Below, piece by piece: positions 19,143-51,788 of a stretch of 64,000 bases of DNA; position 1 is the stretch's first letter, and each line of letters opens with the position of its first letter. The stretch is from an uncultured Pseudomonadales bacterium (GTDB lineage: Bacteria; Patescibacteriota; Microgenomatia; UBA1400; PJMF01): assembly GCA_964537665.1 (NCBI GenBank), contig CAZIBP010000001.1:11972-75971 (forward strand). Reading direction: 5' to 3'. Both the position numbers and the translations under genes were made by a program. The notes beneath the pieces were generated by a model. It was not told the DNA's origin and made no database searches. It saw only the letters and a list, made by a program, of their open reading frames with translations.

Positions 19143-19478
19143 CTAAGACTGAAGCTTGCTAAAAGCTCTGTTAAAACGAAACCAAAGATAAAAAAGAACT
19201 AATTGCCAATAAAAGCAAAAAAACAAAACTGTTTGATAAAAAAATCTAAACCAAAAAACCAAGTTATAAATTGATGTTATTAAACTAATTTCAAGTAATA
19301 AATCAAATCCTAAAACAATTAAGATCGGATAAAATATAAAAGGTAATAAAACTTTATTTTTAACCAAAAGTTGCATGCTGCGATACGGATGTAATAAAAG
19401 ACCAAGTAAAAGCTGACCGCTAGAATAAATTAGCGATTCCAAAATCAATAAAAATTTGTTTTGTTTGTTACCAAACAT
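19143..19478 (-). CDS. Hypothetical small membrane protein
   Basis: 111-aa ORF with 3 hydrophobic segments. Downstream of the sigma/anti-sigma-like pair. Confidence 0.3.
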   Translation of the reverse strand: MFGNKQNKFLLILESLIYSSGQLLLGLLLHPYRSMQLLVKNKVLLPFIFYPILIVLGFDLLLEISLITSIYNLVFWFRFFYQTVLFFCFYWQLVLFYLWFRFNRAFSKLQS

Positions 19479-19665
19479 AGTTAATAAGATTCATGATTAA
19501 AGCGGACAAAATAGCTAAAATTAAGAGGGACTGCCAAAGATGATTAGCCACAAAGTTAGCTAAATCGCTCAACTGATCTGGAACAAATTTGTCTTGTACC
19601 AAAAAGCTTTGTTCTTTGGCGGTATTTTTTAATAGCTTTAAAAAATTATCATCAATCATTTTCAC
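19468..19665 (-). CDS. Small C-terminally membrane-anchored protein, candidate anti-sigma factor
   Basis: 65 aa, overlaps the sigma factor stop. Soluble N-terminus plus C-terminal TM (LLILAILSALIMNLINYVW). Assignment is by position only. Confidence 0.3.
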   Translation of the reverse strand: MKMIDDNFLKLLKNTAKEQSFLVQDKFVPDQLSDLANFVANHLWQSLLILAILSALIMNLINYVW

Positions 19666-20218
19666 ATTCTAGTTTGAGCCATAAAGCCTTAAATTCTTTC
19701 CTGGCGCGAAACAGATCTGATTCAACTGATTTAATTGTTACATTCATTTCCAAAGCAATATCTTTGACTTTTTGGCAATCAACATATTTTTTAAGCAATA
19801 GCTCGCGATTTTTTTTGACCATTCTTTTTAACACTAGCGTTACTAATTCTGCAGAAGAAGCTGCATCTTTGTAATTTTGCTCGAACAAAAAGTCACTAAG
19901 AGGAATGGTTTGAATAAACTTCTTGGCGTACTGTTTGCGATAGTAATCAGCCACTTCATGACGCATCACGCTTTGCATCCAGGTCAATAAAGAAGATTTC
20001 CCCTTAAATAGATTTAATGTTTGTAAACAACTAATAAAAGTTTCCTGGACAATTTCAGCAGCAACACTCTGATTGGGTACTTTACTTAGAGCAATTTTTC
20101 TAAGTTGTGGGCGATACTTTTTAAACCAATATTCAACTGCCAACTCGTTGCCATTTTTCAGAGCTTCAATGAGCACTTCTTCCTGATTGAAACCAACAAA
20201 ACGAGTTAAATCTTGCAT
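19652..20218 (-). CDS. RNA polymerase sigma factor, sigma-70 ECF-type
   Basis: 188 aa. Region-2-like segment (...YRPQLRKIALSKV...ETFISCLQ) and region-4 HTH (VKDIALEMNVTIKSVESDLFRARKEFK). Confidence 0.7.
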   Translation of the reverse strand: MQDLTRFVGFNQEEVLIEALKNGNELAVEYWFKKYRPQLRKIALSKVPNQSVAAEIVQETFISCLQTLNLFKGKSSLLTWMQSVMRHEVADYYRKQYAKKFIQTIPLSDFLFEQNYKDAASSAELVTLVLKRMVKKNRELLLKKYVDCQKVKDIALEMNVTIKSVESDLFRARKEFKALWLKLECEND

Positions 20219-20301
20219 ATTATCTACATTGCTATTTTACACCAGATAACCATTTTAAAAACACTGCGGCTTTTATTTCGATATGAGTCTAGTTATAATA
20301 A

Positions 20302-20760
20302 TTGAAGATGAAACGTATTTTTTTCTTAGTTAGTCTTGTGTTATTTTTGCTTAGTTTAGGTTCTTCTATCCTAAGAACTGGTCAAGTTTATGCAGTAGAT
20401 GATGAAGGCGAAGGTGGTGGAAACGGAGGAGGCGGAGTGGAACTACAAAACCTAGAAACTGTAGGTATTCCCATCGGCAACAAATTGGTTCTAAAAAATG
20501 GCTCAGCAGTACAAGATGTTTTTAACAGCACTGATGATATGGTTAATTTAATCGTTAAAGTGCTTTTCGTCGGAGCAGGCTTTGTGTTATTTTTTATGAT
20601 TGTGGGAGCTGGTTTTGCTATGATTAAAGGAAGTGGAGACGACAAAAATAAGGCCAAAACCACCATGACTTCTGCTTTGGTTGGTTTTGTAATTATGTTT
20701 TCTGCTTATTGGATCGTGCAAATTATCCAGTTAATTACCGGTATTAATATGAATTTTTAA
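20302..20760 (+). CDS. TrbC/VirB2-like pilin paralog 1 (signal peptide, Gly-rich segment, TM-loop-TM core)
   Basis: Signal peptide, GEGGGNGGGG, and core FAMIKGSGDDKNKAKTTMTSALVGFVIMFSAYWIVQII matching the consensus shared by all seven paralogs. Confidence 0.6.
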   Translation: MKMKRIFFLVSLVLFLLSLGSSILRTGQVYAVDDEGEGGGNGGGGVELQNLETVGIPIGNKLVLKNGSAVQDVFNSTDDMVNLIVKVLFVGAGFVLFFMIVGAGFAMIKGSGDDKNKAKTTMTSALVGFVIMFSAYWIVQIIQLITGINMNF

Positions 20761-20805
20761 ACAAATGCACAAAATAGTTTATAATCAAAGATAGAAAAGA
20801 CAGAA

Positions 20806-21234
20806 ATGAAAAGAATTATCTTTAGCCTAATTTTTACCGTCTCCATGCTACTGCTTAACAATCAACTAGCAACGGCTCAAAGTGTCTTTGGCCCAATTGA
20901 AGCTCCAGCTGGAGTAGCTGAATTTAATAGCAAAGCTGGTGCAGGAGCCAATAACATCGGACTTTTAATCTTTGTTTCCAACATGATTAAAGTTATCACA
21001 ATTGTAGCCGGCATTTGGGTGCTATTTAATTTTGTTATTGCTGGCTTCACTTACATCACCGCCAATGGTGATAGCAGCGCTTACGCCAAGATTGGTGAAA
21101 AATTATCATTTAGTGTTTCTGGTTTGGTTTTGATTGTTGCTTCCTACACGATTGCCGGAATTATTAGTTTAATCGTTTTTGGCGATGCCACTTTCATTAT
21201 TAATCCAGATATACCAACAGCAATAGGACCATAA
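20806..21234 (+). CDS. TrbC/VirB2-like pilin paralog 2
   Basis: Signal peptide plus core FTYITANGDSSAYAKIGEKLSFSVSGLVLIVASYTIAG. Confidence 0.55.
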   Translation: MKRIIFSLIFTVSMLLLNNQLATAQSVFGPIEAPAGVAEFNSKAGAGANNIGLLIFVSNMIKVITIVAGIWVLFNFVIAGFTYITANGDSSAYAKIGEKLSFSVSGLVLIVASYTIAGIISLIVFGDATFIINPDIPTAIGP

Positions 21235-21235
21235 T

Positions 21236-21589
21236 ATGGCAGGAATTGGATCAATTGAACCGATTACAGAAGCAAGAGCACCAGAGTCGCTGGATGAAGT
21301 TGGTTTGACCACATCTCTGGAAACTTATGTTAGTGACATTATTGGCTTGATCACCGCACTTGCAGCTCTATTCTTTATTGTTTATTCATTCCTGGCAGCT
21401 TTTGAATGGGTCACTGCAGGTGGCGATAGTGGCAAAGTGGAAAAAGCCAAAAACAGATTTATTTGGGGTACTCTAGGATTAATCTTAATTGTAGCTAGTT
21501 ACTCAATTATTGGCTTAATTGGCAGCTTGGTAGGTATTCCTATTTTGAGTCCAGGCGAGCTAATTAAAACTCTAAACCCAGCAAATTAA
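21236..21589 (+). CDS. TrbC/VirB2-like pilin paralog 3
   Basis: Core FEWVTAGGDSGKVEKAKNRFIWGTLGLILIVASYSIIG. 2-nt spacing from the previous gene. Confidence 0.6.
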   Translation: MAGIGSIEPITEARAPESLDEVGLTTSLETYVSDIIGLITALAALFFIVYSFLAAFEWVTAGGDSGKVEKAKNRFIWGTLGLILIVASYSIIGLIGSLVGIPILSPGELIKTLNPAN

Positions 21590-21591
21590 TT

Positions 21592-22095
21592 ATGAAACTC
21601 AAATTAAACAAGCAAATCGTTTTAACTACCTTAGCTTCTCTGGTGATTTTCCTAACTTTAGCTGCCAATTCACAAGCCGCCATCACCAATCCAGTCATTG
21701 GTGATTTAGGTACTAGTGAGGGTGTGGAAGATGGCAGCAAATTTGTTAGTTATGCTGTTTACCTGTGGAAAGTAAGTATCAATTTGGGTGCATTGGCGGT
21801 AATTGCTTTTTTTCTGTGGGGAGCATTTGAATGGATTACTGCTGGATCAGATAGTAAAAAAACAGAAACTGCTCGCAGCAGAATGACCAACGCCGTAATT
21901 GGCTTAATTATTTTGGTTTCCTCATTTACTATCTTGAGTTTTGTTAGCAAAATTTTCTTCGGTGAAAATTTTGATTTGCTAAAATTAACTTTTCCCACCC
22001 AACTTGAGGAAGGAAGCTCTAGTTTAAACTCCAGTTTAAATACCAATGGAACTAATGCGACACCAACTACTCCAGCCTTAGGAACTAATCCTTAA
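21592..22095 (+). CDS. TrbC/VirB2-like pilin paralog 4 (with C-terminal Ser/Thr/Asn-rich tail)
   Basis: Core FEWITAGSDSKKTETARSRMTNAVIGLIILVSSFTI. Confidence 0.6.
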   Translation: MKLKLNKQIVLTTLASLVIFLTLAANSQAAITNPVIGDLGTSEGVEDGSKFVSYAVYLWKVSINLGALAVIAFFLWGAFEWITAGSDSKKTETARSRMTNAVIGLIILVSSFTILSFVSKIFFGENFDLLKLTFPTQLEEGSSSLNSSLNTNGTNATPTTPALGTNP

Positions 22096-22103
22096 TAAAT
22101 AAT

Positions 22104-22442
22104 ATGTCAAAACAACTCGCTATTACTTTAGATATTGCCGGAGAAGCCAACACTCAAGGCATACAAGGTGCTCAATATCATTCTAATAGCGATGGCGGCT
22201 TCGGAATTTTCTTTGGTAACATCATCAGTGCCGCCATGACCATTGCTGCTATTTTGGTTTTGGCTTTTTTGGTGCTAGGAGCAATTGAATGGATCACCTC
22301 TGCTGGAGATAAAAGCAAAATGGAGAGTGCTAGAAATAAAATTAGCAATGCCATCATTGGTCTAATCATCTTATCCGCCACTACAGCAGTTTTCTTGTTG
22401 TTGGAACAATTTTTAGGAATAGATGTTTTGACTTTTAATTAA
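22104..22442 (+). CDS. TrbC/VirB2-like pilin paralog 5
   Basis: Core IEWITSAGDKSKMESARNKISNAIIGLIILSATTAVF. Confidence 0.6.
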   Translation: MSKQLAITLDIAGEANTQGIQGAQYHSNSDGGFGIFFGNIISAAMTIAAILVLAFLVLGAIEWITSAGDKSKMESARNKISNAIIGLIILSATTAVFLLLEQFLGIDVLTFN

Positions 22443-22486
22443 AATTTGACTAAACTTGATATAATATATAAATAAGGAGTTATCAT

Positions 22487-22891
22487 ATGAAATCATTGAA
22501 GAAATTTGTCTTAGCTAGCGGAACCGCTCTAAGTGGCTTAGTTGCCAGCGCAAGTTCTGTCTTAGCAGCAGTAAATATCGAGAGAATTGATACTGGTAAA
22601 GGCTATGCCACTAATTTTGGTACTATGTTTAGTTCTATGCTAAACGTGGTGATGTTAATCGCTGCTCTCTTAGTCTTTGCTTACATGATTTGGGGCGGCA
22701 TCGAATGGATCACTTCAGGTGGAGATAAAAGTAAAGCAGAAAGTGCTAGAAACAAACTCACTGCTGCTATTATTGGTTTGGTAATTATTGCTGCTTCATA
22801 CGCCGTAGTGACACTAATCGTTCAATTCTTGGGCTTTAGTGACTTCAATGACGTCTTTACTAATGTCGGAGATATCAATAATCCTCGATAA
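22487..22891 (+). CDS. TrbC/VirB2-like pilin paralog 6
   Basis: Signal peptide plus core IEWITSGGDKSKAESARNKLTAAIIGLVIIAASYAVV. Confidence 0.6.
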   Translation: MKSLKKFVLASGTALSGLVASASSVLAAVNIERIDTGKGYATNFGTMFSSMLNVVMLIAALLVFAYMIWGGIEWITSGGDKSKAESARNKLTAAIIGLVIIAASYAVVTLIVQFLGFSDFNDVFTNVGDINNPR

Positions 22892-22910
22892 TTTTTTTAC
22901 AACTTTTAAA

Positions 22911-22937
22911 AACCCGCTTGAAAAGGCGGGTTTTTTT
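22911..22937 (+). terminator. Rho-independent terminator after pilin paralog 6
   Basis: aacccgc-ttgaaaag-gcgggtt hairpin followed by ttttttt. Confidence 0.6.
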
Positions 22938-23030
22938 GCGCCCGGAATTTATTGATGGTGGGTCCGAAGTGGAAACGAAGGACGAGATGGTTTTGATTTT
23001 GAGGTAAAAAGGTTATAATCTAGAAAACAA

Positions 23031-23393
23031 ATGCAAATCATCAAGCAAGCTTACGCACAAACTCAAGAGTGGACAAGTATTAGTCCTGGCTGCGTTAATG
23101 CTGAAGTCGCCACTATACAAGGTTTTGGTTGTCTTTTAGCCAATGTTTTATCGGTGGCGCTAACCCTACTTGGAATTGTGGGTTTTGTGATGATTATTTA
23201 TGCCGCCTTTAACATGATGGTGATGGGTGGCAACAGCCAAGCTACTGAAAAATCAAAAAACACCATCACCTTTGCCGTAATTGGCATTATCCTCGCTCTT
23301 TCTTCTTTCATCATTATCAATCTAATTGCAGATTTCACCGGCGTAAGTACCATTAAAGACTTTTCTATTCCGGGATCAGGTAAAAATTGGTAA
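23031..23393 (+). CDS. TrbC/VirB2-like pilin paralog 7 (more divergent)
   Basis: Core MMVMGGNSQATEKSKNTITFAVIGIILALSSFIIIN. Own promoter-like aggttataat upstream. Confidence 0.5.
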   Translation: MQIIKQAYAQTQEWTSISPGCVNAEVATIQGFGCLLANVLSVALTLLGIVGFVMIIYAAFNMMVMGGNSQATEKSKNTITFAVIGIILALSSFIIINLIADFTGVSTIKDFSIPGSGKNW

Positions 23394-28106: not shown

Positions 28107-28299
28107 ACGAAGCGTTTATTTTAACATAAAAGTTATTTTCTTAAAAGCCACATATAAATTAGCAGTTTAAATATTTTTTTATTAACAAACTAGATCAAAC
28201 TAAAAAGAGTTAATTAAAAATAAAAATTTAAAAAAAGGTTGATGGACAAATAAAATCTAAGTAAACCAAAATAAAGCACGTGGAAAAAAATAATTAATT

Positions 28300-31149: not shown

Positions 31150-31178
31150 TTAAATCATTTTAGAACAAAATTAAAGCT

Positions 31179-31601: not shown

Positions 31602-31635
31602 AATTCCAGATTTATTAACGCAAACTCTGGTAGAA

Positions 31636-32094: not shown

Positions 32095-32096
32095 TT

Positions 32097-33050: not shown

Positions 33051-33057
33051 TTAATTC

Positions 33058-33601: not shown

Positions 33602-33620
33602 TTATTTAAATATTCTAGAT

Positions 33621-36883: not shown

Positions 36884-39091
36884 TTATTTTGGTGGTTGAT
36901 AGTCGTTTATACTATAAATCCCGTGTTGATCTGGTTTAACTTCTTTTGAAGTTGCTAATTTTTCTTTTTGATCTGTTTCTTCAAAAACTGTTTTGATTTT
37001 ATAATCATTATCTCTATTATCCAATTCTTGGTCTGGATTAAAAGTAAGACGATCGGTTTTTAGGGCAGTTTCTGCATTTTGTTTAGCATTCTTAAGTGGA
37101 TCTTGATTGAGATCAATTTCTTTATTTTCCCATCTGGAAGCTAATTGTTCAGTATCTTTTTTGGTATTTTTAAAGTCGGTGTTATTAATTAATCGTTGTT
37201 TGCGCAGCTCTCTACTTTTTTTATATTCTTCATAGCTGGCTGTTCTTGGCTTTGAGGCAGCATTTAAAGCTTGATTAATTTCTTTATCATCTTTTTTACG
37301 TAGGATCTCTTCTGGATTAGTTGTAATGACACTGTGTTCTTGGGGTGAAGCAATCACTCTTAAGGCGACATGATTCTGACCAGCGAAGAAAATTCCTTCT
37401 CCCACATCTGAGGAGACTAATAATTGACGTTCACCCTCAGATAAATAAAAAGTTTGAGTGAGAATTGGCACTGAAGCAGTCGACTGCTTCATTAAAAATT
37501 GAATGGAAGCATTAGACACAATTGCTTTGCCATAGTCATTGTGGAGAAAGTCTTCTACGTCTTGAGTAATTGTGGTGATACCAAGATAATATTTGCGCGC
37601 TCTTTTAACCATTGAGTAAACAAAGGCAGCACTATCAGGATGCATCATAAAATACCAAGCCTCATCAATTACCAAGATACGTCTTTTAAGATTTTTCTTA
37701 ACTCTTGTCCAAATAAAATCCAAGATGACATACATGGCAATTGGGCGAAGTGATTCTTCCATTTCCTTGACCGAAAAAACAGTAAATTGAGAATGAATGT
37801 CAATATTGGAAGCTTGATCAAAAATTCCGCGAAAAGAGCCAGTGATAAATTTTTCTAAACGAGCAGCAATATCATCACTTTCATCTTGTTCCATACCAAT
37901 TAGAGCCTTATAGAGGTCTTCCATTAATGGTGGAGTATTTTTTTGGGTAGCTGGATCTGGAGTAATTCCTTTAGCTTTATAGGCAGCAATAATTGAACGA
38001 TCAAGTAAAGCTTCTTGTTGTGGGGTCATTTCACCCAGCATAACCTTGAGAAGTCCATGAATAGAGAGTATTTTTTGTCCCAATTCGTTTTCTCCCTCTT
38101 CATAAATGTTGGACAAATCAAAGGGATTAATTTTAGCCTCTGAGCCAAAAGTAAAATTAATGTATTCTCCACCAACCATTTTGCATAATTCTTCATACTC
38201 ATGTTCTGGGTCAAGTACAATGACTTCAGCATCAAACATCAGCTGTCGCAGAACTTCTAGCTTAACAGTATATGATTTGCCAGCACCAGATTTGGCAAAA
38301 ATTACCATATTGGCGTTTTCCATTTTGAAGCGATCAAAGATAACTAGAGAGTCATTATGTTCGTTGATGCCATAAACAATGCCGGTTTCCATAGTTAATT
38401 CGGAAGAGGTGAAAGGAAAAGTGGTAGCTAGGGAAGTGGTGTCCATATTTCTAGTCACAGAAAGACGATCGACACCCATTGGTAAGGTGGTTTTAAAACC
38501 CTCATCCATTTGTAGGGCAGATTTTTTGGAAACAATCATTAAGGCGCCTAAAGTGCTTTGGATGCTTTTGGTGATTTTATCTAACATTTCCTTGCTATCA
38601 GCTCGAACCGTCACATATAAGCCAAATTGAAAAAATCTTTCAGAACCGGCAGCTAACTGCTCTCGCATCGTTCTTGCGTCACTTAATTTGATTTCTGTAT
38701 TAATGTTGCTAATTTTTCCAGATCTAATATCGGAAGTAATTTCAGCTTCCATTTCTGTAATTTTGCGCTTTAGATTATCGAGAATATCGCCGGTATCTGA
38801 TGGAAAAACAAACATCGAAATATTGGCTTGTTGAGGGTAGTTGATGAGTGGTGAAAGCCAGTTGGCTGGGACAGCACGAGGATAGCCAGCAATAAATAAA
38901 GTGCGAGTGTAGGTGGAGTTAATTTTTTGGTAAGTGAAATCGACCTCAATTGCTTCTGGAGCAATAATATCTTGAATCGTTACTAAACCACGAGAAAATT
39001 CGCTTAGTTTCTCTTGAGTATATTGTTCAACATTGATTTTATTTTGATCAGTTGAAGTGATGGTTTTTTTCTTAGCAAAAAGATTAAGCAT
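36884..39091 (-). CDS. VirB4/TrbE/PrgJ-like type IV secretion ATPase
   Basis: Walker A VIFAKSGAGKSYTV, Walker B RRILVIDEAWYFM. 735 aa with the domain order of VirB4-family ATPases. Confidence 0.7.
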   Translation of the reverse strand: MLNLFAKKKTITSTDQNKINVEQYTQEKLSEFSRGLVTIQDIIAPEAIEVDFTYQKINSTYTRTLFIAGYPRAVPANWLSPLINYPQQANISMFVFPSDTGDILDNLKRKITEMEAEITSDIRSGKISNINTEIKLSDARTMREQLAAGSERFFQFGLYVTVRADSKEMLDKITKSIQSTLGALMIVSKKSALQMDEGFKTTLPMGVDRLSVTRNMDTTSLATTFPFTSSELTMETGIVYGINEHNDSLVIFDRFKMENANMVIFAKSGAGKSYTVKLEVLRQLMFDAEVIVLDPEHEYEELCKMVGGEYINFTFGSEAKINPFDLSNIYEEGENELGQKILSIHGLLKVMLGEMTPQQEALLDRSIIAAYKAKGITPDPATQKNTPPLMEDLYKALIGMEQDESDDIAARLEKFITGSFRGIFDQASNIDIHSQFTVFSVKEMEESLRPIAMYVILDFIWTRVKKNLKRRILVIDEAWYFMMHPDSAAFVYSMVKRARKYYLGITTITQDVEDFLHNDYGKAIVSNASIQFLMKQSTASVPILTQTFYLSEGERQLLVSSDVGEGIFFAGQNHVALRVIASPQEHSVITTNPEEILRKKDDKEINQALNAASKPRTASYEEYKKSRELRKQRLINNTDFKNTKKDTEQLASRWENKEIDLNQDPLKNAKQNAETALKTDRLTFNPDQELDNRDNDYKIKTVFEETDQKEKLATSKEVKPDQHGIYSINDYQPPK

Positions 39092-39092
39092 A

Positions 39093-40466
39093 TTATGCTT
39101 GGGTTTTTATTGTTTGATCCGATGGTAATTCTTGATTTAAAATTGGTTCTTGAGCTTGTTCTTCAAATTTATTTTGTAAAGGGGTGATATCCTCCCCAAA
39201 TCCTTCTACTAAGTTGCTGTCAGTCGAATTATCAATTGTTAGATTATTATTAGTGGTGTTGACAGAATTAGCGCTAAGTAAGTTTGGATCTAAATTTAAA
39301 TCAAGCTCTGGCGACTGACTATTAACTACCGGATTTTCTTGATTTGGAAGTTCTGGTGGAACTGATATTGGTGACGAAATAGGTTCCGGAATAGCATTAA
39401 CTGGTTCAGGTACAGTATTTATTGGCGTTGTTTCAATAATTGGCGGCATGTCTATTTCACTAGTGATTTCATTAGCTGTTGCCGCTTTTGCTAGATTTTC
39501 AATTTGAGGGTTGTCTGTTGTGTTGTTTAAATTTGGTTCTGGATAAATAACTGTTTGGGTCGGTTCGTTACTTAAAATCTCTTCAGCACTAGGATTGGTG
39601 GTGATCGGTGAAGACAATTCTGGTTGGTTAATATCTTGCGTAGCTGTAGTAATATTTTCGCTAGCGGCTATGAGAGTATCTTCATTATTTGAAATCGGGC
39701 TGGCAGCGGGGGTTGCTGTTATTTGATCTTGAATTAGAGGGCTTTGTTGGTTGCTTGTTTGATTATTTAGTTGCATAAATTTTCCTCCAAAACTGGCCCT
39801 GACTAGGGGAGTTGTATAATTTTCGCTGCTACTGATTTCTTGTCCTTCAGCAGCTTCAGGATTGTAATTGATATAGAAATTTTGAATAATCTCTTGAGTG
39901 GTTAATTGTCTGGTAAAAAGTCCCAAACGGTTAAATTGAGCAGTTAAATGATCTCGACGTGGCTCCAAAATGTTGGTGGCTTTTTCCAGCAAAATACTTT
40001 TTTCAACACTAGTAATGTCAAAGGCAGTTTTGCCAGGTAAAACTCCAGATGGAGTAATTAATCCCATTTCTCCAGGACTAGCCGGAACAATAATATAGAA
40101 TCTTTTTTGCAAAACATTTCTTTCTTTGATTAGAGTTGCCACGAAATCTCGATATTGTTTAATTAAAGTTGCTTTGCGATCTGAACTAGCTTTCTGGACT
40201 TGCTCTTCGAGAAGTCTTAAATATTTAGTAGCATCTTTAGTTTGAGACTGAATATTAATTTGAATTGGGTAGTTGAGAGAATTAAGCAGCGAACCATAGG
40301 TAAAAATTACGGCATCCTGTTCTTGCTCAGCCAATAAACTAAAATTCATTGTGCCAATTTGTAGAATAACTGAAGCGGTACCGTCTTTTAACAGAACCAT
40401 GTCATTGACGATGTCATAGACATCAAGAAATTCTTGCGTGGTGGAACTAATCACTTTATCGCTCAT
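39093..40466 (-). CDS. Hypothetical protein with a long Pro/Asn/Thr/Ser-rich low-complexity C-terminus, between the PrgI-like and VirB4-like genes
   Basis: 457 aa. N-terminal ~230 aa globular, C-terminal half low-complexity (PxxP-rich, ...PEPVNAIPEPISSPISVPPELP...). 1-nt gap to the VirB4-like gene. Confidence 0.4.
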   Translation of the reverse strand: MSDKVISSTTQEFLDVYDIVNDMVLLKDGTASVILQIGTMNFSLLAEQEQDAVIFTYGSLLNSLNYPIQINIQSQTKDATKYLRLLEEQVQKASSDRKATLIKQYRDFVATLIKERNVLQKRFYIIVPASPGEMGLITPSGVLPGKTAFDITSVEKSILLEKATNILEPRRDHLTAQFNRLGLFTRQLTTQEIIQNFYINYNPEAAEGQEISSSENYTTPLVRASFGGKFMQLNNQTSNQQSPLIQDQITATPAASPISNNEDTLIAASENITTATQDINQPELSSPITTNPSAEEILSNEPTQTVIYPEPNLNNTTDNPQIENLAKAATANEITSEIDMPPIIETTPINTVPEPVNAIPEPISSPISVPPELPNQENPVVNSQSPELDLNLDPNLLSANSVNTTNNNLTIDNSTDSNLVEGFGEDITPLQNKFEEQAQEPILNQELPSDQTIKTQA

Positions 40467-40475
40467 GAACTGATT

Positions 40476-41345
40476 CTAGTTTACTAAATTTTGAGGCTTG
40501 ATTACAAGGGGACCTAGTATTTCACCCTTTAATTCTATTTGCGAGCTTGGATATTTGTATTCATTTTTTTCTACCAAGACAAAATAAATTCCATTACTGA
40601 GAGGTTTATTGACCTGAAAATTACCAGCTTCATCGCTTTTCATTATTCTCAAGCTCTGACCTTTCTGATCCTTAATTTCCACAATGGCGTTGACAACAGC
40701 TATGCCGTGTTGATCTAAAACCAAGCCAAAAACTTGATTGGGCAGATGATCGCCATTAGTGATAAAAGTTTGAGGGGTGTTTAATTTTCTAACTCTGGTT
40801 TGTAAACTGGGTTTTTCTTGTTTTTTTAATTCAATTTCAACATCTGTTGACCTGACCTGAACCTTGTCATATTCGCCTAAAATATTACTAATTTTTTGAT
40901 TTTCTTGCAGGTCAAATTGATCAACTCTCTCATCAGAGGGGATGCTTTTTAGATATTCAAAAATTCTTTGTTTGCGTGCGGGGTTTAAATTAACATCTGG
41001 AGCAAAAAAATCACTTTGTGTGCTGCTAATCTTATAATTAAAAAGATCAGGAATTTTGTTGGCTTTTTTCCAGAAAAACTTAGTTGGTTTATAGATGTTT
41101 TTAAAGAAAGTCTTAATCCAATGATCAAGCGGTCTTTCTTCAATTGGCACAAAAGCCACCATTGCCCCAAAACCAACAGTAATAAAAACTAAAGGCCATT
41201 TGATAATTCCGATTAAGTTGGTCTTAAAAATTGCGAAAGCAATTACCACTGCCACAGCAATCTCGGCAAATTGTTTGAGAGTCATGCTACCTATAAGGTG
41301 AAACTTATAGTTGGTGATGTCTTGAGGAATAGGATGTTGTTTCAT
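40476..41345 (-). CDS. PrgI/VirB3-like two-TM membrane protein fused to a C-terminal carboxypeptidase-regulatory-like (Ig-like) domain
   Basis: The N-terminal ~90 aa has two TMs (FAEIAVAVVIAFAIF / WPLVFITVGFGAMVAFVPI) and sits immediately before the VirB4-like gene, as PrgI does. The C-terminus GLVLDQHGIAVVNAIVEIKDQKGQSLRIMKSDEAGNFQ resembles the CarboxypepD_reg fold. Confidence 0.45.
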   Translation of the reverse strand: MKQHPIPQDITNYKFHLIGSMTLKQFAEIAVAVVIAFAIFKTNLIGIIKWPLVFITVGFGAMVAFVPIEERPLDHWIKTFFKNIYKPTKFFWKKANKIPDLFNYKISSTQSDFFAPDVNLNPARKQRIFEYLKSIPSDERVDQFDLQENQKISNILGEYDKVQVRSTDVEIELKKQEKPSLQTRVRKLNTPQTFITNGDHLPNQVFGLVLDQHGIAVVNAIVEIKDQKGQSLRIMKSDEAGNFQVNKPLSNGIYFVLVEKNEYKYPSSQIELKGEILGPLVIKPQNLVN

Positions 41346-41405
41346 CTTTTAATACTTGTTTCCTAATTAGTTTAGCAGGTTTCACTAATTTCTTGTCAAA
41401 GCAAA

Positions 41406-42401
41406 CTATTTTTCTAAAGCAGTGTTAACTGCTGGAGTAATAATTTGAGCTTGAATGTTGATGCCAGCGGCGTTAGTTAATTTTGCTTGAAACTTATAAA
41501 ATGGATAGACAATTTTTAAACTCTCATCAAGACGATAATCGACTGAAACATCGTACAAATCAGCCTCATTAATCCAATTTAAATCAATCACCTCAACCAA
41601 CTGGCTTTTGGCATCAATGATGGAAGCTTTACCATTTTTAATATTTCTAACCGCTTGATCAAGGCTAATGGTTGGCAAATCTTTAATTGGTGCAAAATTG
41701 TAGAAAAAATCTTTAAAAACCACTCTTTCTACTTGATAGTTGTTGTTAATCTTGCAAAAAAATGGGTAGCTGTTCTCATTTTGATAAAACACAGGATAAC
41801 CGTCCAATTGGTAGCTAAGTGGTACTTGGATGTAGTTGGCTCGAGCTAATTCTGTTTCTGTTTGTTCTGATCTGCCGCTTAAAAAAACCAGATGATCTTT
41901 TTGTGCAATTAAAATTAAATTAACACTATATTTTGAATAAAAATTAAGACAGCTCTTAATTGCTTCGCTTGGAATCATTTGAACTTGATTTGTGGCCTGA
42001 CTGGTATCAAGATCAAAAGCATAGCGGTTTTCATAGGTGTTTTTATTTAAAATGTAAGCTCCTTTTGCCCAATAATTTTCCAGTGAGCCAACATTTTCAA
42101 GCTTATACTCATCGATCATTTTTTGTGCTAATTCACTGGATAAATCTAGAGTTCCGTTAATTTTGTAGATCTTCATTTTTTCTGGTAATGAAATTTCTTC
42201 ACCAGAAAAAGAGATTTTTTTGAAAGTGCTTTTACTTTGATCATAGTTATTAACCACAAAGTCAGTTTGAATAACTTTTTCTTGTTGTGGAGTAATAATG
42301 GTTAAAATGGCGGAAATAAGTAGAGCAAATACGACAAAAACAACTAAAAGAGGAATAACTTTTATTTCTTTTTTAACTTTATTTTTTTGGCTTTGATTCA
42401 T
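41406..42401 (-). CDS. Bitopic membrane-anchored extracytoplasmic protein (possible VirB8/PrgL-like component; no motif support)
   Basis: 331 aa with a single N-terminal TM (VIPLLVVFVVFALLISAILTIITP). The remainder is predicted extracellular. Confidence 0.35.
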   Translation of the reverse strand: MNQSQKNKVKKEIKVIPLLVVFVVFALLISAILTIITPQQEKVIQTDFVVNNYDQSKSTFKKISFSGEEISLPEKMKIYKINGTLDLSSELAQKMIDEYKLENVGSLENYWAKGAYILNKNTYENRYAFDLDTSQATNQVQMIPSEAIKSCLNFYSKYSVNLILIAQKDHLVFLSGRSEQTETELARANYIQVPLSYQLDGYPVFYQNENSYPFFCKINNNYQVERVVFKDFFYNFAPIKDLPTISLDQAVRNIKNGKASIIDAKSQLVEVIDLNWINEADLYDVSVDYRLDESLKIVYPFYKFQAKLTNAAGINIQAQIITPAVNTALEK

Positions 42402-42404
42402 ATT

Positions 42405-45400
42405 TTATTCATAACAAGTGGTGACGTTGTCGCCATTTTTGGGGGGATAGTTCCCATTATCTGCTTCAGGTACCAGAGTTTCAAGAATGGAAAAATTTCT
42501 AGAACTTGGACTGTAAAAAGCTCCATTAAAATCTACTTCATAATGAAGATGTTTGCCGGTTGAATTGCCGCGATTACCCATTAGACCGATAGCAAAGCCC
42601 TCGTCAACATTCATACATGAATTAGGTTGGCTGAGTTGAGAATTGGCTGATTCAAAGTGCGCAAAAAGTAATTTGCGACTGGTACCATTATCATCAAAAG
42701 TGAGAATAAAATAACAACCATAACCAGTGTCACTACACTTAATAAAACAGAGACTGCCAGGAAAAGTGGTATAAACCATACGAACAACATCATCGGGTCC
42801 ATCACTATCGGTAATATCGTAAGCATCAGCGTAACCTCCAGATTCTGGAGGACGATGTGAAGCATCATCATCAGGAATACCCTGTCCAAAAGGCAATTGA
42901 CTAATGTTACCAGTGGTTGGCCAGCAGCCAGCTCCAGCACTACACTCACCCAGACAAACTCTGGCCGCAGTAATGACATTATCAGTGCCAGACATGTAAG
43001 AGTTTTGGTAATAAAAATTAACTTCGATAGTGTTAAGAATGGCAGTGTGGTTGTAGTCGGAACTTAGATTGTCTAAAGTGTAAGTGAAAGTTAGGCTGCT
43101 GCCTGCCTCAATAATAATATTTTCACTACTACCAGATGGAATTGGTGTGGTGGGATTGGGATTGCCCACGCCTAGTGTGGGGGTTGTTGTGGGACTAAGA
43201 GAAGTATTGCTCAGTCCTCCTTGCTGACCAATAATTCCCTTGAAGTATTCAAAGTCTAAAACCTTTTCCGTTGGAATATTGGGTGGAGATTGACCTGCGT
43301 CTTCCCACGCCTTTTTACTTTGTTTAAATTTAATAGTGTCTTCAATGTTGGTGATTTGCAGCGAAAAATCTTCCTTGGGCTTGATAGTGACGGTGTATTC
43401 AATGGAGACGGGAAAAGATGGATTTTCACATTTAGTGCCATTGCTTTCTGGGCTAGGGCAACCGCTTTTAATCACGGCTGTTTTACTAATTTCGGCATAT
43501 TTGGAAGTTTTTTCAACACTATTGATGCCGGCAGCATTTGGATCATTGAAAGGGAAGTCGGTCAAAAAAGCTGAATTTAAACTAGTTTGATAAACATACA
43601 TAAAAATGGTGCTAGCCCCAACGGTGGCAATTACAGCTTGACCGGCAGTAATCATCGCTCCAGAAGAAATACCACTAGTCAGAGTTTTAAGGCCCTGTGC
43701 TGCTTGGGTGGTAGCGACTTGGTTTTGAGTAGCTTGTGCTGTTAGTCCCTGCTTGCCAAAACCACCAATTCCTTCGCTGATCTGATTAATTGCTTTACCT
43801 CCACCAGTGAAAAAATCCTTAATTCCACCCCAAGCGTTACGCAAAAAAATTGCCGCAGGAGCCAAGATCAGTAATAATGGCAACATGGAGCCAAGCGCCG
43901 CCAAAATTCCCAAACCAAGCAACCAAGGCCAATTTTTCTTGATAAATTCAAGAACTTTTTCCAGGCCCATTTCTATTAGTTTTTCTTTGAGTTGTTTGAC
44001 AAGTGGAACTGCTGCTTCAGCAGCTCGCAGAGCTTCTCCCCAGCCACCAGCCGCATCAAGAGCTAGATAAAGCCCTTCACTTAGGGCTTTGGTGGCTAGT
44101 TTTTTGCTCTGCTGACCCAGAGCACTGTCCATAAAATCAGTGCTCTGATAATTACTATTTGAGGCAAAAGCTTGCTGAGCCCAACCATCTCCATTCTGAT
44201 AAAAGGCATTGTTTCTAGCAAAGTTGGTGGCGCGCTCAAAAATACTAGTCCCAAGCGTTTCATTAGCTTGGAGCATATAGAAATCCATGGGATTAATTTG
44301 AGGAAGGACTTGGGTTTGGAAAATTTGGATACTATATTCTTGAATAGTATAGCCAGGCAAATAAAAATCAAAATATACTTTGAGAGTTTTTTGCTGCTCT
44401 GCTTCGCTCATCTTGGCCAATTGTTCTTCTAGGTTTTTTTTGATGAGGTCTTGTTGTTGGCCAATAAATTGGTTGACTTCAGCTCCATCCACTTTGGCAT
44501 TAGCTGAGCCAGCTAATTTTTCTGCAATTTCTCTGCCGCCATAAGTGAGATTGAGAGTGCCTAAATTGCGTAATTGAGCAATTTTTTGAGGATTTTTGCT
44601 AATTTCTTTAAGTAATTGTTGGGCTTCTTCCGGAGTGTATTTTTCTTGGGCAAATTCTTGGCGAATTTCACTAGCCCAGATAATCCTTTTTCTTTTCCAG
44701 TAAAAAATAATTAAGTTGGCTAACTCTTCTCGATGATTATTAAACTCAGAACGTTCGATGCTAGTGCCAAAAATATTAACAAATCTGTTGTAATCAAAGT
44801 TTTTTGGATCAGGAATCAGGTATTCTGGAGGCAAACCTTGTTGAATGAAGACTTCGATCAAAGGTCGAACGTTATCGGTGATTAATTTAATTTTAAAATT
44901 ATCTTGATTACCAATAATTTGGCGAATTTTCTCTCCAAAAATTTGTTCCAGTCGTCCTTCATCTTGGACAATATTTAATTCTGATTCGATTTTCCTAGCA
45001 AAGTCTTGATTACTTTGACCTTCATCTTGTTTTTGCTGCAGAATTGCTTGGGCCTGAGCAGTGTTAGTGGAGTTTTCCTTGTCATTTTTGATGCGAGGAC
45101 TAAGTTTGTCGTTTGTGAGTTTTTCTTTTTCGTTGGCTTTAATTTTCGCTGCTGCCTTTTGACCATCTTTGGCAATTTCGCGAACGCTATCATTAAGCAA
45201 CTTAAGACCATGAACATCCATAAGCAAGCCGAGTGCGGCTTGATTGCTAAAATTAATACGCTTAGATTGCTCTCTAATTAAACTGTCCAAAGAGAATTGA
45301 CCGCTTAGAAGTAGGTTTTCCACCTGTAAAAAAGCTCGATCCATTAGTTGACGTCGCACATCAAGGGGTAGCTGATCAAAAGTAACCTGAGTACCCGGTG

Positions 45401-46235
45401 GCAAGCCAATTTTGGCTAGAGAAGCCTCATTAAAATATCTATTAAGAGCTTGATTGATGGTGATGATGGAGAGTGATTGGAGGTAAAGTCGAGACTGAGG
45501 ATCAAGCTCTGAGATTTTAATGGGGGTTGTGTCAGTGTTAGGCTCTTGAGTTTTTTTTGGCTCGCGACTTTGACTGGATTCAGCTTCGCCACCACCTCTC
45601 TCTGTTTCTTGAGGCTTTTTTTGACCTGGAAAAAGTCCAGCCAGGCCTAGTCCGCCAGTACTAGTGGAGGTGACACTTGGCGTTGTTTCCGCAATTTCCT
45701 CCTCAATTTTTTCTTCTGGAGCAATACTTGGTGCCAAGATTAAATAAATTAATTTAATGCGTTCAACAATCCTTCTCGAATAATCTATGTACTCAATTCT
45801 TTGTAGGTCTTCAATGCTAACCTTATCACCTGCTGGTTCCACACCCACTAATTTAAAAGTGCTTTCCAGTCGGTCTAATTCTTGTCTTTGAGTTGAGCTG
45901 ATGGAAATGTTGTTGCTACTTAAAGAAGTGCGGATTTGTTCAACAAAATTAACCAAGTCAGACAAAAACAAAAAAGGCACTTTGCCTCTGGGTGGGGCAA
46001 TACCATTTAAAATGTCAGCAGCAGTGCTAAGATCAAATTCGCCGCCATAACTAAAGCCTTCAATCGCAAAATCACCTTTGACTTTTTTGTCTCCTGCTGC
46101 TTCAGCATAAAAATTGCTAATCCAGCCAGCACTTCTCTGGAGAATTTCACGAATTTGAGCGGCACTGAGACTCTCAACGCCGGCTAGTTTCTTCAGTTCG
46201 ATTCGAGTTTTTTGATTAATTGCTTCTGCTGCCAT
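42405..46235 (-). CDS. Giant membrane protein with a C-terminal M23 (LytM-type) metallopeptidase domain; candidate cell-wall hydrolase of the T4SS-like apparatus
   Basis: 1276 aa. Central TM cluster (NWPWLLGLGILAALGSMLPLLLILAPAAIFL; AMITAGQAVIATVGASTIFMYVY). C-terminal KLLFAHFES ... GNRGNSTGKHLHYEV matches the M23 blocks (xLYAHLS / GSTGxSTGPHLHFE). Confidence 0.65.
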   Translation of the reverse strand: MAAEAINQKTRIELKKLAGVESLSAAQIREILQRSAGWISNFYAEAAGDKKVKGDFAIEGFSYGGEFDLSTAADILNGIAPPRGKVPFLFLSDLVNFVEQIRTSLSSNNISISSTQRQELDRLESTFKLVGVEPAGDKVSIEDLQRIEYIDYSRRIVERIKLIYLILAPSIAPEEKIEEEIAETTPSVTSTSTGGLGLAGLFPGQKKPQETERGGGEAESSQSREPKKTQEPNTDTTPIKISELDPQSRLYLQSLSIITINQALNRYFNEASLAKIGLPPGTQVTFDQLPLDVRRQLMDRAFLQVENLLLSGQFSLDSLIREQSKRINFSNQAALGLLMDVHGLKLLNDSVREIAKDGQKAAAKIKANEKEKLTNDKLSPRIKNDKENSTNTAQAQAILQQKQDEGQSNQDFARKIESELNIVQDEGRLEQIFGEKIRQIIGNQDNFKIKLITDNVRPLIEVFIQQGLPPEYLIPDPKNFDYNRFVNIFGTSIERSEFNNHREELANLIIFYWKRKRIIWASEIRQEFAQEKYTPEEAQQLLKEISKNPQKIAQLRNLGTLNLTYGGREIAEKLAGSANAKVDGAEVNQFIGQQQDLIKKNLEEQLAKMSEAEQQKTLKVYFDFYLPGYTIQEYSIQIFQTQVLPQINPMDFYMLQANETLGTSIFERATNFARNNAFYQNGDGWAQQAFASNSNYQSTDFMDSALGQQSKKLATKALSEGLYLALDAAGGWGEALRAAEAAVPLVKQLKEKLIEMGLEKVLEFIKKNWPWLLGLGILAALGSMLPLLLILAPAAIFLRNAWGGIKDFFTGGGKAINQISEGIGGFGKQGLTAQATQNQVATTQAAQGLKTLTSGISSGAMITAGQAVIATVGASTIFMYVYQTSLNSAFLTDFPFNDPNAAGINSVEKTSKYAEISKTAVIKSGCPSPESNGTKCENPSFPVSIEYTVTIKPKEDFSLQITNIEDTIKFKQSKKAWEDAGQSPPNIPTEKVLDFEYFKGIIGQQGGLSNTSLSPTTTPTLGVGNPNPTTPIPSGSSENIIIEAGSSLTFTYTLDNLSSDYNHTAILNTIEVNFYYQNSYMSGTDNVITAARVCLGECSAGAGCWPTTGNISQLPFGQGIPDDDASHRPPESGGYADAYDITDSDGPDDVVRMVYTTFPGSLCFIKCSDTGYGCYFILTFDDNGTSRKLLFAHFESANSQLSQPNSCMNVDEGFAIGLMGNRGNSTGKHLHYEVDFNGAFYSPSSRNFSILETLVPEADNGNYPPKNGDNVTTCYE

Positions 46236-50963: not shown

Positions 50964-51788
50964 ATGATCGATCATGCACAAACTGATAAATTCAGGGACA
51001 TTCTAGAGCTTAGCAAAAATACACTGTTGATTTTTAAGGAGAGTAAAGATCTTGATTTATTTCTTGCCAGTTATTGTTTATTTTCCTTTCTAGTGAGAGA
51101 AAAAGAAATTCGTCTTTTAACTCCCAAATTTAAACTAAAACTTCCCAAGTCATTAACAGATTTAATCGACCTTAAAAAGATTGAGACAGAACTGGGTAAA
51201 GAAAATTTATTGATTAGTTTTCCTTACCTTGAAGAGCAAGTCGACAAAGTTTCTTACTATATTGGTGAACACGATCAGCGTTTTTATCTCACTATCAAAC
51301 CAAAAAGTGGTGTAGCGGCAATTGATAGTTCTAAAGTGGAATTTTCTTATGCCGGAACCCAAGCTGATTTGTTAATTCTATGTGGAGTGGAGGATTTGGA
51401 AAAATTGGAACAGCTCTATTTTGCTTATGAGGATTTGTATAAAACCAATAATAATCATGTGGTGACCCTCAATCACTTTATTCCAGATTTTGGCACTCTC
51501 AACTTAGATATTTCAGGAGCTAGTTCTTATTGTGAGGCGGTTTACTATTTGCTCAAAGATTTGGGAGAAGATAAACAAGATTTTTTGGCCAAAAGTGATT
51601 TACCAACCTTACTACTTTATGGGATTGAATATAGTAGTCGTGGTTTACAATCTATGGACACCACAGCGAGCACTTTCCTCAGCGTGGCAGAATTACTAAA
51701 GCTTGGTGCTACTCGGCTTTTTAAATTAGATTTGCCAGCAAACGTAAAAACTATTGGGCAGCAGCCCCAGATTCATTCAATAAAATAG
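50964..51788 (+). CDS. Hypothetical protein (possibly a degenerate DHH/NrnA-like fold)
   Basis: 274 aa, soluble. Weak resemblance to DHH phosphoesterases, but the DHH catalytic residues are not evident. Confidence 0.3.
   Translation: MIDHAQTDKFRDILELSKNTLLIFKESKDLDLFLASYCLFSFLVREKEIRLLTPKFKLKLPKSLTDLIDLKKIETELGKENLLISFPYLEEQVDKVSYYIGEHDQRFYLTIKPKSGVAAIDSSKVEFSYAGTQADLLILCGVEDLEKLEQLYFAYEDLYKTNNNHVVTLNHFIPDFGTLNLDISGASSYCEAVYYLLKDLGEDKQDFLAKSDLPTLLLYGIEYSSRGLQSMDTTASTFLSVAELLKLGATRLFKLDLPANVKTIGQQPQIHSIK

Follow-up and report, generated by a model that had tools for sequence, protein, structure and literature searches.

A conserved tandem array of seven T4SS_pilin-family genes in the replication-origin region of a Microgenomatia-type Patescibacterium

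The window analysed here, the whole stretch of 64,000 nucleotides, comes from the replication-origin region of a Patescibacteria chromosome of Microgenomatia type, with a monoderm-type T4SS adjoining dnaA. At positions 20302-23393 lies an array of seven plus-strand ORFs of 112-167 aa (pil1-pil7), whose coordinates, sizes and family matches agree with the preliminary description of seven small same-strand ORFs with a common core. Each ORF is kept in about 80 other genomes, and we therefore regard all seven as real genes. The array comprises the following features:

20308..20760, plus strand: pil1; signal peptide (VYA/VD); PF18895 E 2e-6; first array position in relatives
20806..21234, plus strand: pil2; signal peptide; conserved C-terminal motif FGDATFI.NP; orthologue group with its own consensus
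21236..21589, plus strand: pil3; without signal peptide; PF18895 E 1e-9; TrbC E 0.026
21592..22095, plus strand: pil4; signal peptide; PF18895 E 3e-8; Ser/Thr/Asn/Pro-rich C-terminal tail
22104..22442, plus strand: pil5; without signal peptide; PF18895 E 5e-7
22487..22891, plus strand: pil6; signal peptide; strong Shine-Dalgarno AAGGAG; PF18895 E 5e-8
22908..22937, plus strand: intrinsic terminator directly 3' of pil6; hairpin followed by T7
23014..23019, plus strand: -10 box TATAAT about 11 nt 5' of the pil7 ATG, which looks leaderless
23031..23393, plus strand: pil7; PF18895 25.2 bits; conserved AQT..W; two conserved Cys in the ectodomain

The longest ORF of pil1 starts from a TTG at 20302 (20302-20760), and the ATG at 20308 (150 aa), as annotated on an identical public contig, is the more likely start. 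Genes 1-6 are tightly packed with gaps of 1-45 nt, close to the 2-50 nt reported earlier for the whole array, but 139 nt precede gene 7. All seven proteins match the Pfam family PF18895 (T4SS_pilin) with E values of 1e-9 to 4e-4, as do 131 of the 141 sampled family members at E <= 0.01, bearing out their designation as pilin-family paralogues. The gathering score of 26.6 bits is exceeded by five of the seven and by two fusion proteins encoded elsewhere in the window; pil2 (20.8 bits) and pil7 (25.2 bits) fall just under it, yet their orthologue groups belong to the PF18895 family. The array proteins share 24-46% pairwise identity across the hairpin core and contain the (E/T)W(I/V)T(S/A)GGD loop. 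Alignment and hydropathy analysis revealed the PF18895 architecture of two hydrophobic helices connected by a short charged loop, and in the AF2 model of pil6 the helices span residues 41-76 and 81-114, with the hairpin at a pLDDT of about 90. A signal peptide, previously attributed to all seven proteins, was recognisable as a signal-peptide-like N-terminus only in pil1, pil2, pil4 and pil6. In the present genome pil3, pil5 and pil7 are without one; such a segment occurs in 4 of 76 type 3 and 6 of 65 type 5 orthologues, and the pil7 leader, of 9 residues only here, is long in distant orthologues.

Analysis of the relationship to TrbC/VirB2 separated two parts of the earlier assignment as TrbC/VirB2-like pilins: membership of the T4SS_pilin family held, while direct homology to PF04956 stayed below threshold. 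Against the PF04956 cut-off of 27.9 bits, the best scores in the window were 20.6 (the fusion protein fusA) and 15.2 (pil3), and only 9 of the 141 family members matched at E <= 0.01, comparable to the noise seen with generic TM families. Comparison by hhalign with eight virB2/trbC genes from MPF_T plasmids gave E values of 0.0015 (probability 16%), 0.009 (4.5%) and 0.21, with the alignments in register over helix 1, loop and helix 2 at these low probabilities (4-16%). A PDB profile search returned no match. Among NCBIfam models, NF045849, the Mbov_0395 family pilin-like conjugal transfer protein, was the top match for eight of the nine hairpin proteins. The alignments extend along nearly all 80 profile positions (E 4e-7 to 6e-3), with scores of 16-30 bits that all lie under the 40-bit equivalog cut-off.

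VirB3- and VirB4-type genes (VirB4, TrsD-like, PrgI) lie in the same chromosome region as the array, and the relevant part of the window contains the following features:

36884..46235, minus strand: T4SS core adjoining dnaA (Pfam; dnaA and dnaN identified)
36884-39091, minus strand: VirB4 ATPase; NCBIfam conju_CD1110, 390.9 bits against a cut-off of 325
39093-40466, minus strand: TrsD-like, weak TrsD match
40476-41345, minus strand: PrgI/VirB3-like (Pfam)
41406-42401, minus strand: 1-TM protein, part of the T4SS core
42405-46235, minus strand: M23 peptidoglycan hydrolase of 1276 aa (Pfam)
49193..50866, minus strand: 557-aa protein with 7 TM segments (hydropathy), possibly a VirB6-like channel subunit
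51751..54678, minus strand: sec975, a 975-aa Cys-rich secreted protein, co-operonic with fusB and fusA
54706-55437, minus strand: fusA, 243 aa; signal peptide, Cys-rich ectodomain, C-terminal pilin hairpin
55434-56306, minus strand: fusB, 290 aa; signal peptide, Cys-rich ectodomain, C-terminal pilin hairpin

Pfam scanning of the window ORFs identified neither a relaxase nor a coupling protein, and no VirB5 was seen. The reuse of the pilin module as a C-terminal fusion in the two proteins at 54706..56306 was confirmed by PF18895 matches of both fusB (E 1e-7) and fusA (E 1e-8), whose Cys-rich ectodomains span 140-190 aa. Comparison with relatives revealed the order fusB-fusA-pil1..7-sec975, after which come a DHH homologue and, at several loci, the 7-TM gene; the DHH and 7-TM genes follow the sec975 homologue in the same order as in the window. 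The fusB/fusA orthologues lie directly upstream of pil1 in about 10 relatives, and sec975 homologues directly downstream of pil7 in about 18. The contiguity of fusB-fusA-pil1..7-sec975 in distant relatives probably represents the ancestral layout, and it substantiates the link between the array and the T4SS-like cluster that had been proposed before. In the present genome 13.5 kb separate the array from virB4, and 31 kb lie between it and the fusion genes; both distances count against the explanation preferred below.

The secreted protein bears on a reading in which the hairpins have no part in secretion, being holin-like or immunity-type two-TM proteins that work with a cell-wall hydrolase, so that the name T4SS_pilin would be a misnomer. 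Such a reading could draw on VirB2 homology not being statistically demonstrable and on the large secreted protein that follows the array in relatives, one distant homologue of which (P0173) has a lysozyme-like SLT_3 domain where the window protein has its C-terminal domain. For sec975 itself the lysozyme-like assignment failed, and Pfam, PDB and fold searches gave no known domain. Holin and bacteriocin-immunity families, named in the preliminary description as examples of what would speak against a pilin, were absent from the Pfam matches of all 141 members, and no other two-TM family competed. The array is surrounded by housekeeping and T4SS genes, without phage context, and its counterparts in relatives adjoin part of the T4SS gene neighbourhood found in the window. 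Co-occurrence of pilin arrays with VirB4 has been published across 1,948 assemblies, and NCBIfam consistently matches the hairpins best to a conjugative-element protein. We consider this reading highly improbable.

Comparison of the array across about 80 species-level relatives (labelled Microgenomatus, Pacebacteria and Woesebacteria) revealed that it is colinear from type 1 to type 7 with 1:1 orthology, and that the modal copy number is seven. The orthology matrix is diagonal-dominant, with 37-77% identity on the diagonal versus approximately 25-35% off it, and the divergence of the array is about equal to that of the neighbouring housekeeping genes RecF, UppS, LeuRS and L25. Each type has its own conserved N-/C-terminal ectodomain motifs, such as the mature N-terminus A/ITNPV.G.LG in the consensus of the pil4 orthologue group. 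The sole Saccharibacteria-labelled locus recovered (L077, 2.3 kb) encodes four hairpins that all best resemble type 6, so Saccharibacteria arrays may not be 1:1 with the present one. Judged from these sequence comparisons, the seven pil genes form an old, fixed set of individually conserved paralogues whose order is set across many species.

The preliminary description had offered two explanations for this multiplicity, antigenic or functional diversification of a surface filament by amplification and a mixed-subunit pilus. Antigenic diversification would make the array a reservoir of interchangeable major pilins for antigenic or host-range variation, as proposed for the VirB2 paralogues of Bartonella and Anaplasma and suggested for Patescibacteria (PMC12102498). 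The low identity between paralogues (24-46%), the variable exposed N-/C-terminal segments and the extra type 2 and type 6 copies in some relatives would fit it, whereas the slow, housekeeping-like divergence of a fixed 1:1 set argues against antigenic variation. Conservation of order, of modal copy number and of motifs within each type points the same way, as do the very unequal translation signals of the seven genes, and no repeats or recombination cassettes were seen for the array. A variable VirB2 family of the Bartonella/Anaplasma type was accordingly rejected and the reservoir reading appears very unlikely; the evidence favours the alternative of a mixed-subunit structure whose members are functionally specialised.

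Analysis of the expression signals distinguished pil6 from the other array genes. It is the only one with a strong Shine-Dalgarno in the window, and a Shine-Dalgarno of at least 5 nt is present in 59 of 76 type 6 orthologues (78%), compared with 0-11% in the other types. The intergenic gaps on both sides of pil6 are larger, and the strong terminator noted earlier at 22911..22937 was found directly after the gene, with the stem CCCGCTT/AGGCGGG at 22913-22930 and T7 at 22931-22937. In 43 of 78 relatives a hairpin with a T-run occupies the pil6-pil7 junction, its stem differing in sequence between them. With orthologue identities of 58-72%, pil6 is among the best conserved of the seven; it and pil7 (57-73%) rank highest. 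These translation and transcription signals make pil6 the likely major subunit. The promoter ascribed to the seventh gene has a perfect TATAAT but, read by eye, a poor -35 TTGATT at a 15-nt spacer, and went uncalled in a consensus scan because of that -35. Another TATAAT, at 20293-20298, lies about 9 nt 5' of the pil1 ATG, which also looks leaderless.

Divergent from the array is a minus-strand module (19143..20218) with the following genes:

19652-20218, minus strand: ECF sigma factor; Sigma70_r2/r4_2/ECF matches
19468-19665, minus strand: small membrane ORF, 1 TM
19143-19478, minus strand: small membrane ORF, 3 TM

The two membrane ORFs are possibly an anti-sigma or sensor pair. Among 54 long loci, 43 keep the module next to the array, and it stays there even after the flanking RecF, UppS and LeuRS genes have been lost; the remaining 11 gave no sigma match, and locus L005 has none near the array. 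The sequence upstream of pil1 showed no ECF-type promoter motif, and it is the linkage that suggests the module may regulate the array.

We propose, with a probability of roughly 0.62, that the array serves the chromosomal monoderm-type T4SS of this Microgenomatia-class Patescibacterium as its conserved operon of structural subunits, in the following way. Each hairpin would enter the cytoplasmic membrane so that the short basic loop GGDKSKxExARNK faces inwards and the two termini face outwards; four would do so via cleavable Sec signal peptides and three via N-tail insertion, probably with YidC. A VirB4-powered machine would then assemble them into a heteromeric tube or filament running through the wall towards the host cell. 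In this assembly, pil6 would be the abundant major subunit, as suggested by an RBS that is both strong and conserved, by a separate intergenic spacer and by a terminator limiting read-through. The others, pil1-5, pil7 and the two Cys-rich fusion pilins, would be low-abundance specialised subunits for initiation, tip or adhesion, by analogy with minor pilins in type IV pili and in T2SS pseudopili or with the VirB5 of the T-pilus. Expression may be adjusted by the adjacent ECF sigma module. In a stricter version, the seven hairpins and two fusion pilins would each be indispensable to a single ordered heteromeric T4SS filament or conduit and could not replace one another, with pil6 as shaft, the others as base, tip or adhesin and sec975 as a dedicated accessory; we put this forward tentatively, as less likely than not.

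Whether the array proteins form a pilus is the point on which another T4SS reading differs, namely that the hairpins assemble into a ring or channel, embedded in the membrane or spanning the wall, as a short c-ring- or stalk-like conduit of defined stoichiometry. Natural fusions with 2-16 tandem hairpins per polypeptide, including a protein that joins pil5-like and pil6-like hairpins (P0177), support hairpins acting side by side; covalent linkage suits assembly in the membrane, and polyproteins of up to 16 hairpins suit a ring at least as well as a long pilus, although their linkers would lie outside and helical packing is still compatible with them. Gram-positive-type T4SSs are generally without pili (PMC12102498; PMC10633639), no filament has been reported in the literature for any Patescibacterial T4SS, and all seven proteins are very hydrophobic, three of them without a signal peptide. 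The ectodomain motifs of each type, the fused Cys-rich ectodomains and the major-subunit signature, however, resemble a decorated filament, and we regard the ring or channel as rather unlikely. That the array proteins form a pilus is a presumption that comes with the name of the family.

The T4SS is essential in the sole genetically tractable Patescibacterium, where its role has been described as completely unknown (PMC11665869), and its string of pilin-like genes is what distinguishes it from other Gram-positive-type systems. If the paralogues are fixed, ordered and slow, with a single highly expressed member, the question is no longer one of variation for evading immunity or the host, but of how a multi-subunit organelle is built. 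pil6 would be the target for labelling and structure, and the Cys-rich fusion pilins and sec975 would be candidate host-contact factors. Should the ordered heteromeric reading be true, the first VirB2-type structure with multiple subunits would be at hand, and with it the organelle by which Microgenomatia-type epibionts engage their hosts.

Tandem arrays of 2-11 VirB2-like pilin genes have been published for Patescibacteria, being especially abundant in Microgenomatia, for which VirB4 near dnaA is also a published arrangement (PMC12102498, Quinonero-Coronel et al. 2025), and a pilin series in the SEML1_0006-0019 region of Ca. Southlakia epibionticum is essential (PMC10633639, Wang et al. 2023; PMC12857230). 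The literature thus already has tandem pilin arrays from CPR genomes, and the present one adds a further instance; what is added here is the fixed set, the likely major subunit, the probable ancestral layout and the regulator linkage. Like the published arrays, which are defined by at least two divergent tandem PF18895/VirB2-like genes in a genome with a Patescibacteria-clade VirB4, it consists of tandem PF18895 genes of about 25% mutual identity (seven here, at 24-46%) and accompanies an MPF_FATA-like VirB4 near dnaA, assigned by profile match; unlike them, it stands apart from virB4, with the origin genes in between. The published reading leans to versatility or antigenic variation, whereas the present set of seven types is fixed, colinear and slow, with one probable major subunit.

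In common with TrbC/VirB2 proteins (PF04956; A. tumefaciens VirB2, F TraA, RP4 TrbC), the hairpins are small, have two hydrophobic helices and a short charged loop, carry a long leader in some members, have a predicted termini-out topology and are associated with VirB3-/VirB4-type genes. They differ in the lack of a significant sequence match, in the monoderm host, in having nine hairpin genes rather than a single one, in the three hairpins without a signal peptide and in the missing VirB5. The pilin of the archaeal Ced/Ted pili from Aeropyrum pernix (PDB 8dfu) gave a non-significant E of 1.8 at 12-13% identity. The Mycoplasma ICE Mbov_0395 family (NF045849) shares the monoderm setting and the MPF_FATA-type VirB4, and the window VirB4 also matches the Mycoplasma ICE VirB4 model, but the present hairpins score below the equivalog cut-off; the mycoplasma ICE proteins CDS13 and CDS15 have been described as VirB3-like (review PMC12857230). 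Type IV pili and T2SS pseudopili, although unrelated in fold and assembly machine, provide a functional analogy, in which an abundant subunit is encoded together with conserved, non-interchangeable low-abundance paralogues and a terminator follows the major-subunit gene.

Analysis of positions 20302–23393 (forward strand) bore out the preliminary description of seven small paralogous ORFs on one strand with a conserved core, as judged by ORF calls, family matches and alignment. The genes, here named pil1–pil7, encode proteins of 152, 142, 117, 167, 112, 134 and 120 aa that share a hydrophobic helix, a loop of the form (E/T)W(I/V)T(S/A)GGD..K..(A/S)(R/K), and a second helix, with pairwise identities of 24–46%. 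All seven match PF18895 (T4SS_pilin; E values from 1e-9 to 4e-4), five above the gathering score and two just below it, and the same module ends two larger proteins, confirming the C-terminal fusions previously noted. Membership of the pilin hairpins in PF18895 is solid. A public contig carries the array in identical form, and gene calling there puts the start of gene 1 at the ATG at 20308. The features discussed here are as follows.

20302–23393, forward strand: array of seven T4SS_pilin genes, pil1–pil7
22913–22937: terminator after pil6, CCCGCTT-GAAA-AGGCGGG followed by T7
22963–22984, forward strand: 22-nt motif TCCGAAGTGGA(A/G)ACGAAGGACG, located after the pil6 terminator and ahead of the pil7 promoter
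51751–54678, minus strand: sec975, a 975-aa Cys-rich secreted protein
54706–55437, minus strand: fusA, larger protein with a C-terminal pilin hairpin
55434–56306, minus strand: fusB, larger protein with a C-terminal pilin hairpin

The strong terminator described after the sixth gene is genuine. Three details needed correction: a signal-peptide-like N-terminus is present in genes 1, 2, 4 and 6 and not in genes 3, 5 and 7; the spacing of 2–50 nt given for the whole array fails before gene 7, where the gap is 139 nt; and the third, the gene 7 promoter, is described below. Overall, the original observation was confirmed, and its interpretation was supported in part.

To compare the array with its relatives, we used first four syntenic loci and then 80 species-representative loci. 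The blastp matrix revealed strict positional orthology: each gene shares 37–77% identity with its positional counterpart at other loci, against just 25–35% or so with any other paralogue. The gene order 1-2-3-4-5-6-7 is kept across the 80 loci, the modal number of paralogues is seven (38 loci), and the larger arrays arise from extra copies of types 2 and 6. The divergence of pil orthologues equals that of the neighbouring RecF, UppS, LeuRS and L25, and every type carries its own conserved ectodomain motifs, among them A|ITNPV.G.LG in type 4, AQT..W..C..VATIQG..C in type 7 and a C-terminal FGDATFI.NP in type 2. This pattern of orthology, rate and motifs indicates that the seven proteins are probably non-interchangeable parts; the suggestion that amplification reflects antigenic diversification was rejected because one-to-one positional orthology, conserved order and housekeeping-like divergence oppose it. 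In the complete 853-kb genome CP011212.1 (locus L021) the seven-gene array recurs together with its flanks; amino-acid identity is about 80%, and the GC of the locus is 35%. Its record is titled 'candidate division TM6 bacterium GW2011_GWF2_28_16', and dozens of evidently Patescibacterial MAGs (many of L014–L093) are titled 'uncultured Pseudomonadales'; the record titles of these relatives look unreliable.

Comparison of the seven types further pointed to pil6 as the probable major subunit. In the window, the strong Shine-Dalgarno sequence AAGGAG is present only before pil6, and among the relatives a Shine-Dalgarno match of at least 5 nt precedes 59 of 76 type-6 genes (78%), versus 0–11% for the other six types. 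The gaps flanking type 6 are the largest of the array, with medians of 83 nt before and 76 nt after it versus 2–18 nt elsewhere, and in 43 of 78 loci type 6 is followed by a hairpin with a T-run. The terminator stems differ in sequence from locus to locus, which suggests that selection acts on the structure. In addition, pil6 is among the most conserved paralogues; its homologues are labelled Pacebacteria, Woesebacteria or Microgenomatus.

A divergent ECF sigma gene accompanies the array in 43 of 54 long loci, even where all other context is gone, and two small membrane ORFs do so in 41 and 27 of the 54. Since a search upstream of pil1 found no ECF-type promoter, only a conserved TATAAT near the ATG, it is synteny that suggests regulation of the array by the sigma module. 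The TATAAT stands 9–12 nt ahead of the ATG of pil1 and also of pil7, taking the form TTTATAATAATTnnnATG in relatives. In the window, both pil1 and pil7 have a perfect TATAAT 9–11 nt upstream of the ATG (20293–20310 and 23014–23033, element and start codon) and no Shine-Dalgarno sequence, suggesting that their mRNAs may be leaderless. The separate promoter proposed for gene 7 has a perfect −10 element (23014–23019) and a poor −35, and a consensus scan did not call it. The divergent sigma gene has a TAAAAT near its own start (20219–20260). The 22-nt motif has one copy in the window; by chance, zero matches are expected. It recurs once in a related genome (L002, 3835–3856) in a different intergenic region, that between sigma and pil1.

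The window represents the region of the replication origin in a small low-GC chromosome, with dnaA, dnaN, rnpA, yidC and jag at 31.6–36.8 kb. A GC content of 28–30% across 28000–36000 and a cumulative GC-skew minimum at about 34–36 kb, by dnaN and dnaA, are consistent with a replication origin. A monoderm-type T4SS directly adjoins dnaA on the other side from the GC-skew minimum region, a layout as described for Microgenomatia (Quinonero-Coronel et al. 2025, PMC12102498). The cluster beside dnaA and further genes of the window are listed below.

T4SS cluster: VirB4 (NCBIfam conju_CD1110, 390.9 bits against a cut-off of 325)
T4SS cluster: TrsD-like protein
T4SS cluster: PrgI/VirB3-like protein
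T4SS cluster: M23 peptidoglycan hydrolase, 1276 aa
2919–2995, forward strand: tRNA-Ile with anticodon TAT (UAU); the usual bacterial solution for AUA codons is a CAU/lysidine tRNA
14183–16033, minus strand: ATP-dependent DNA ligase of archaeal/eukaryotic type, 616 aa, with all three domains DNA_ligase_A_N/M/C, here on a bacterial chromosome
16052–17140, minus strand: fusion of a Fic/DOC domain and a DeoR-type HTH, adjoining carbohydrate-kinase and RecF genes in relatives too
28300–31149, minus strand: DUF4012 membrane protein, 949 aa, downstream of L25 in all close relatives

The link between the array and the T4SS-like cluster, first proposed from the common module, is tied much more firmly by the synteny of relatives, in loci that end short of virB4. 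Orthologues of fusB and fusA lie directly upstream of pil1 in about 10 more distant relatives, and a sec975 homologue lies directly downstream of pil7 in about 18, followed by the same DHH-like gene as in the window and, in several loci, by the same 7-TM gene. Therefore, the operon fusB-fusA-sec975 (56306 to 51751, minus strand) represents the ancestral operon, from which pil1–7 moved to a second site.

The sec975 gene is syntenic with pilin genes in many genomes. Its 53 homologues have no Pfam domain except the distant P0173, which carries a C-terminal lysozyme-like SLT_3. The C-terminal domain of sec975 (residues ~710–974) is well folded in the model (pLDDT ~90); in P0173 it is replaced by SLT_3, and the two do not align. 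Foldseek, Pfam and PDB searches, including PDB searches with the protein family and with the C-terminal domain, returned nothing significant, and a VirB1-like lysozyme role for sec975, prompted by P0173, is at this stage an unproven lead. By eye only, the family consensus motif TGIPCEVVAGIHWTEGG resembles the active-site region of lytic transglycosylases.

Searched with a family profile, 1.84 billion representative proteins yielded 86,472 cluster representatives at E ≤ 1e-3, many of which carry 2–16 hairpins per polypeptide (P0175 is a further example).

P0174: 552 aa, six T4SS_pilin hairpins
P0206: 1775 aa, sixteen T4SS_pilin hairpins
P0177: a pil5-like hairpin joined to a pil6-like hairpin

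As Rosetta-stone evidence, these fusions indicate that different hairpins probably work side by side; no description of these 'polypilins' was found in the literature examined on these systems. In total, nine PF18895 hairpin proteins are encoded. Seven belong to one ordered operon of ancient origin, one bears major-subunit expression signals, and synteny connects all nine to a VirB4-type machine. We infer that the hairpins would enter the membrane so that the basic loop faces the cytoplasm and the two termini lie outside, by a Sec-dependent route for four and an N-tail/YidC-type route for three. The T4SS would then extract them and build a heteromeric tube or filament whose shaft would be pil6 and in which the other paralogues and the Cys-rich fusion pilins may be specialised base, tip or adhesin subunits. 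The main rival, a membrane-embedded or wall-spanning ring instead of a long pilus, is favoured by the multi-hairpin polyproteins, but both the decorating ectodomains and the signature of a major subunit argue against such a ring. For an epibiotic lifestyle, the heteromeric tube or filament could provide contact or exchange with the host. The view thus moves from variable amplified pilins to a fixed multi-subunit set with one major subunit, a testable refinement and no new category.

The TrbC/VirB2-like label originally given to the array was also examined. PF04956 never exceeded its cut-off (best, 20.6 bits) and matched only 9 of 141 members at E ≤ 0.01, a frequency not above that of generic TM families. 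Alignment by hhalign with eight authentic virB2/trbC genes of MPF_T plasmids, collected by tblastn with A. tumefaciens VirB2, was in register, with E values of only 0.0015, 0.009 and 0.21 at 0.3–16% probability. When the family alignment was run as a profile against PDB sequences, nothing relevant came up, and fold searches with the pil6 model gave only non-significant or non-specific helical-hairpin matches. Direct homology of the hairpins to TrbC/VirB2 is therefore not solid. A holin or immunity reading, named beforehand as the outcome that would refute the pilin interpretation, was also rejected, as no holin or immunity family occurred among the matches of the 141 members.

Besides PF18895, the best curated family is the Mycoplasma-ICE 'Mbov_0395 family pilin-like conjugal transfer protein' (NF045849), which is more consistent than the VirB2 signal: it is the top NCBIfam match for eight of nine hairpin proteins over nearly the full profile, below the equivalog cut-off. 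This match agrees with the MPF_FATA affinity reported in the literature for Patescibacterial VirB4. VirB2-like proteins have been treated as absent from MPF_FATA systems, and VirB2 versatility was suggested to possibly aid adaptation to different host strains (PMC12102498). The sub-threshold NF045849 link is a hint that small hairpin subunits can be a native part of monoderm T4SSs, and it may bear on the origin of Patescibacterial pilins. In Southlakia epibionticum, the essential T4SS has been reported to include a series of predicted pilins (Wang et al. 2023, PMC10633639); the tandem pilin array is thus a kind already published, and recently so, to which the window adds one more member.
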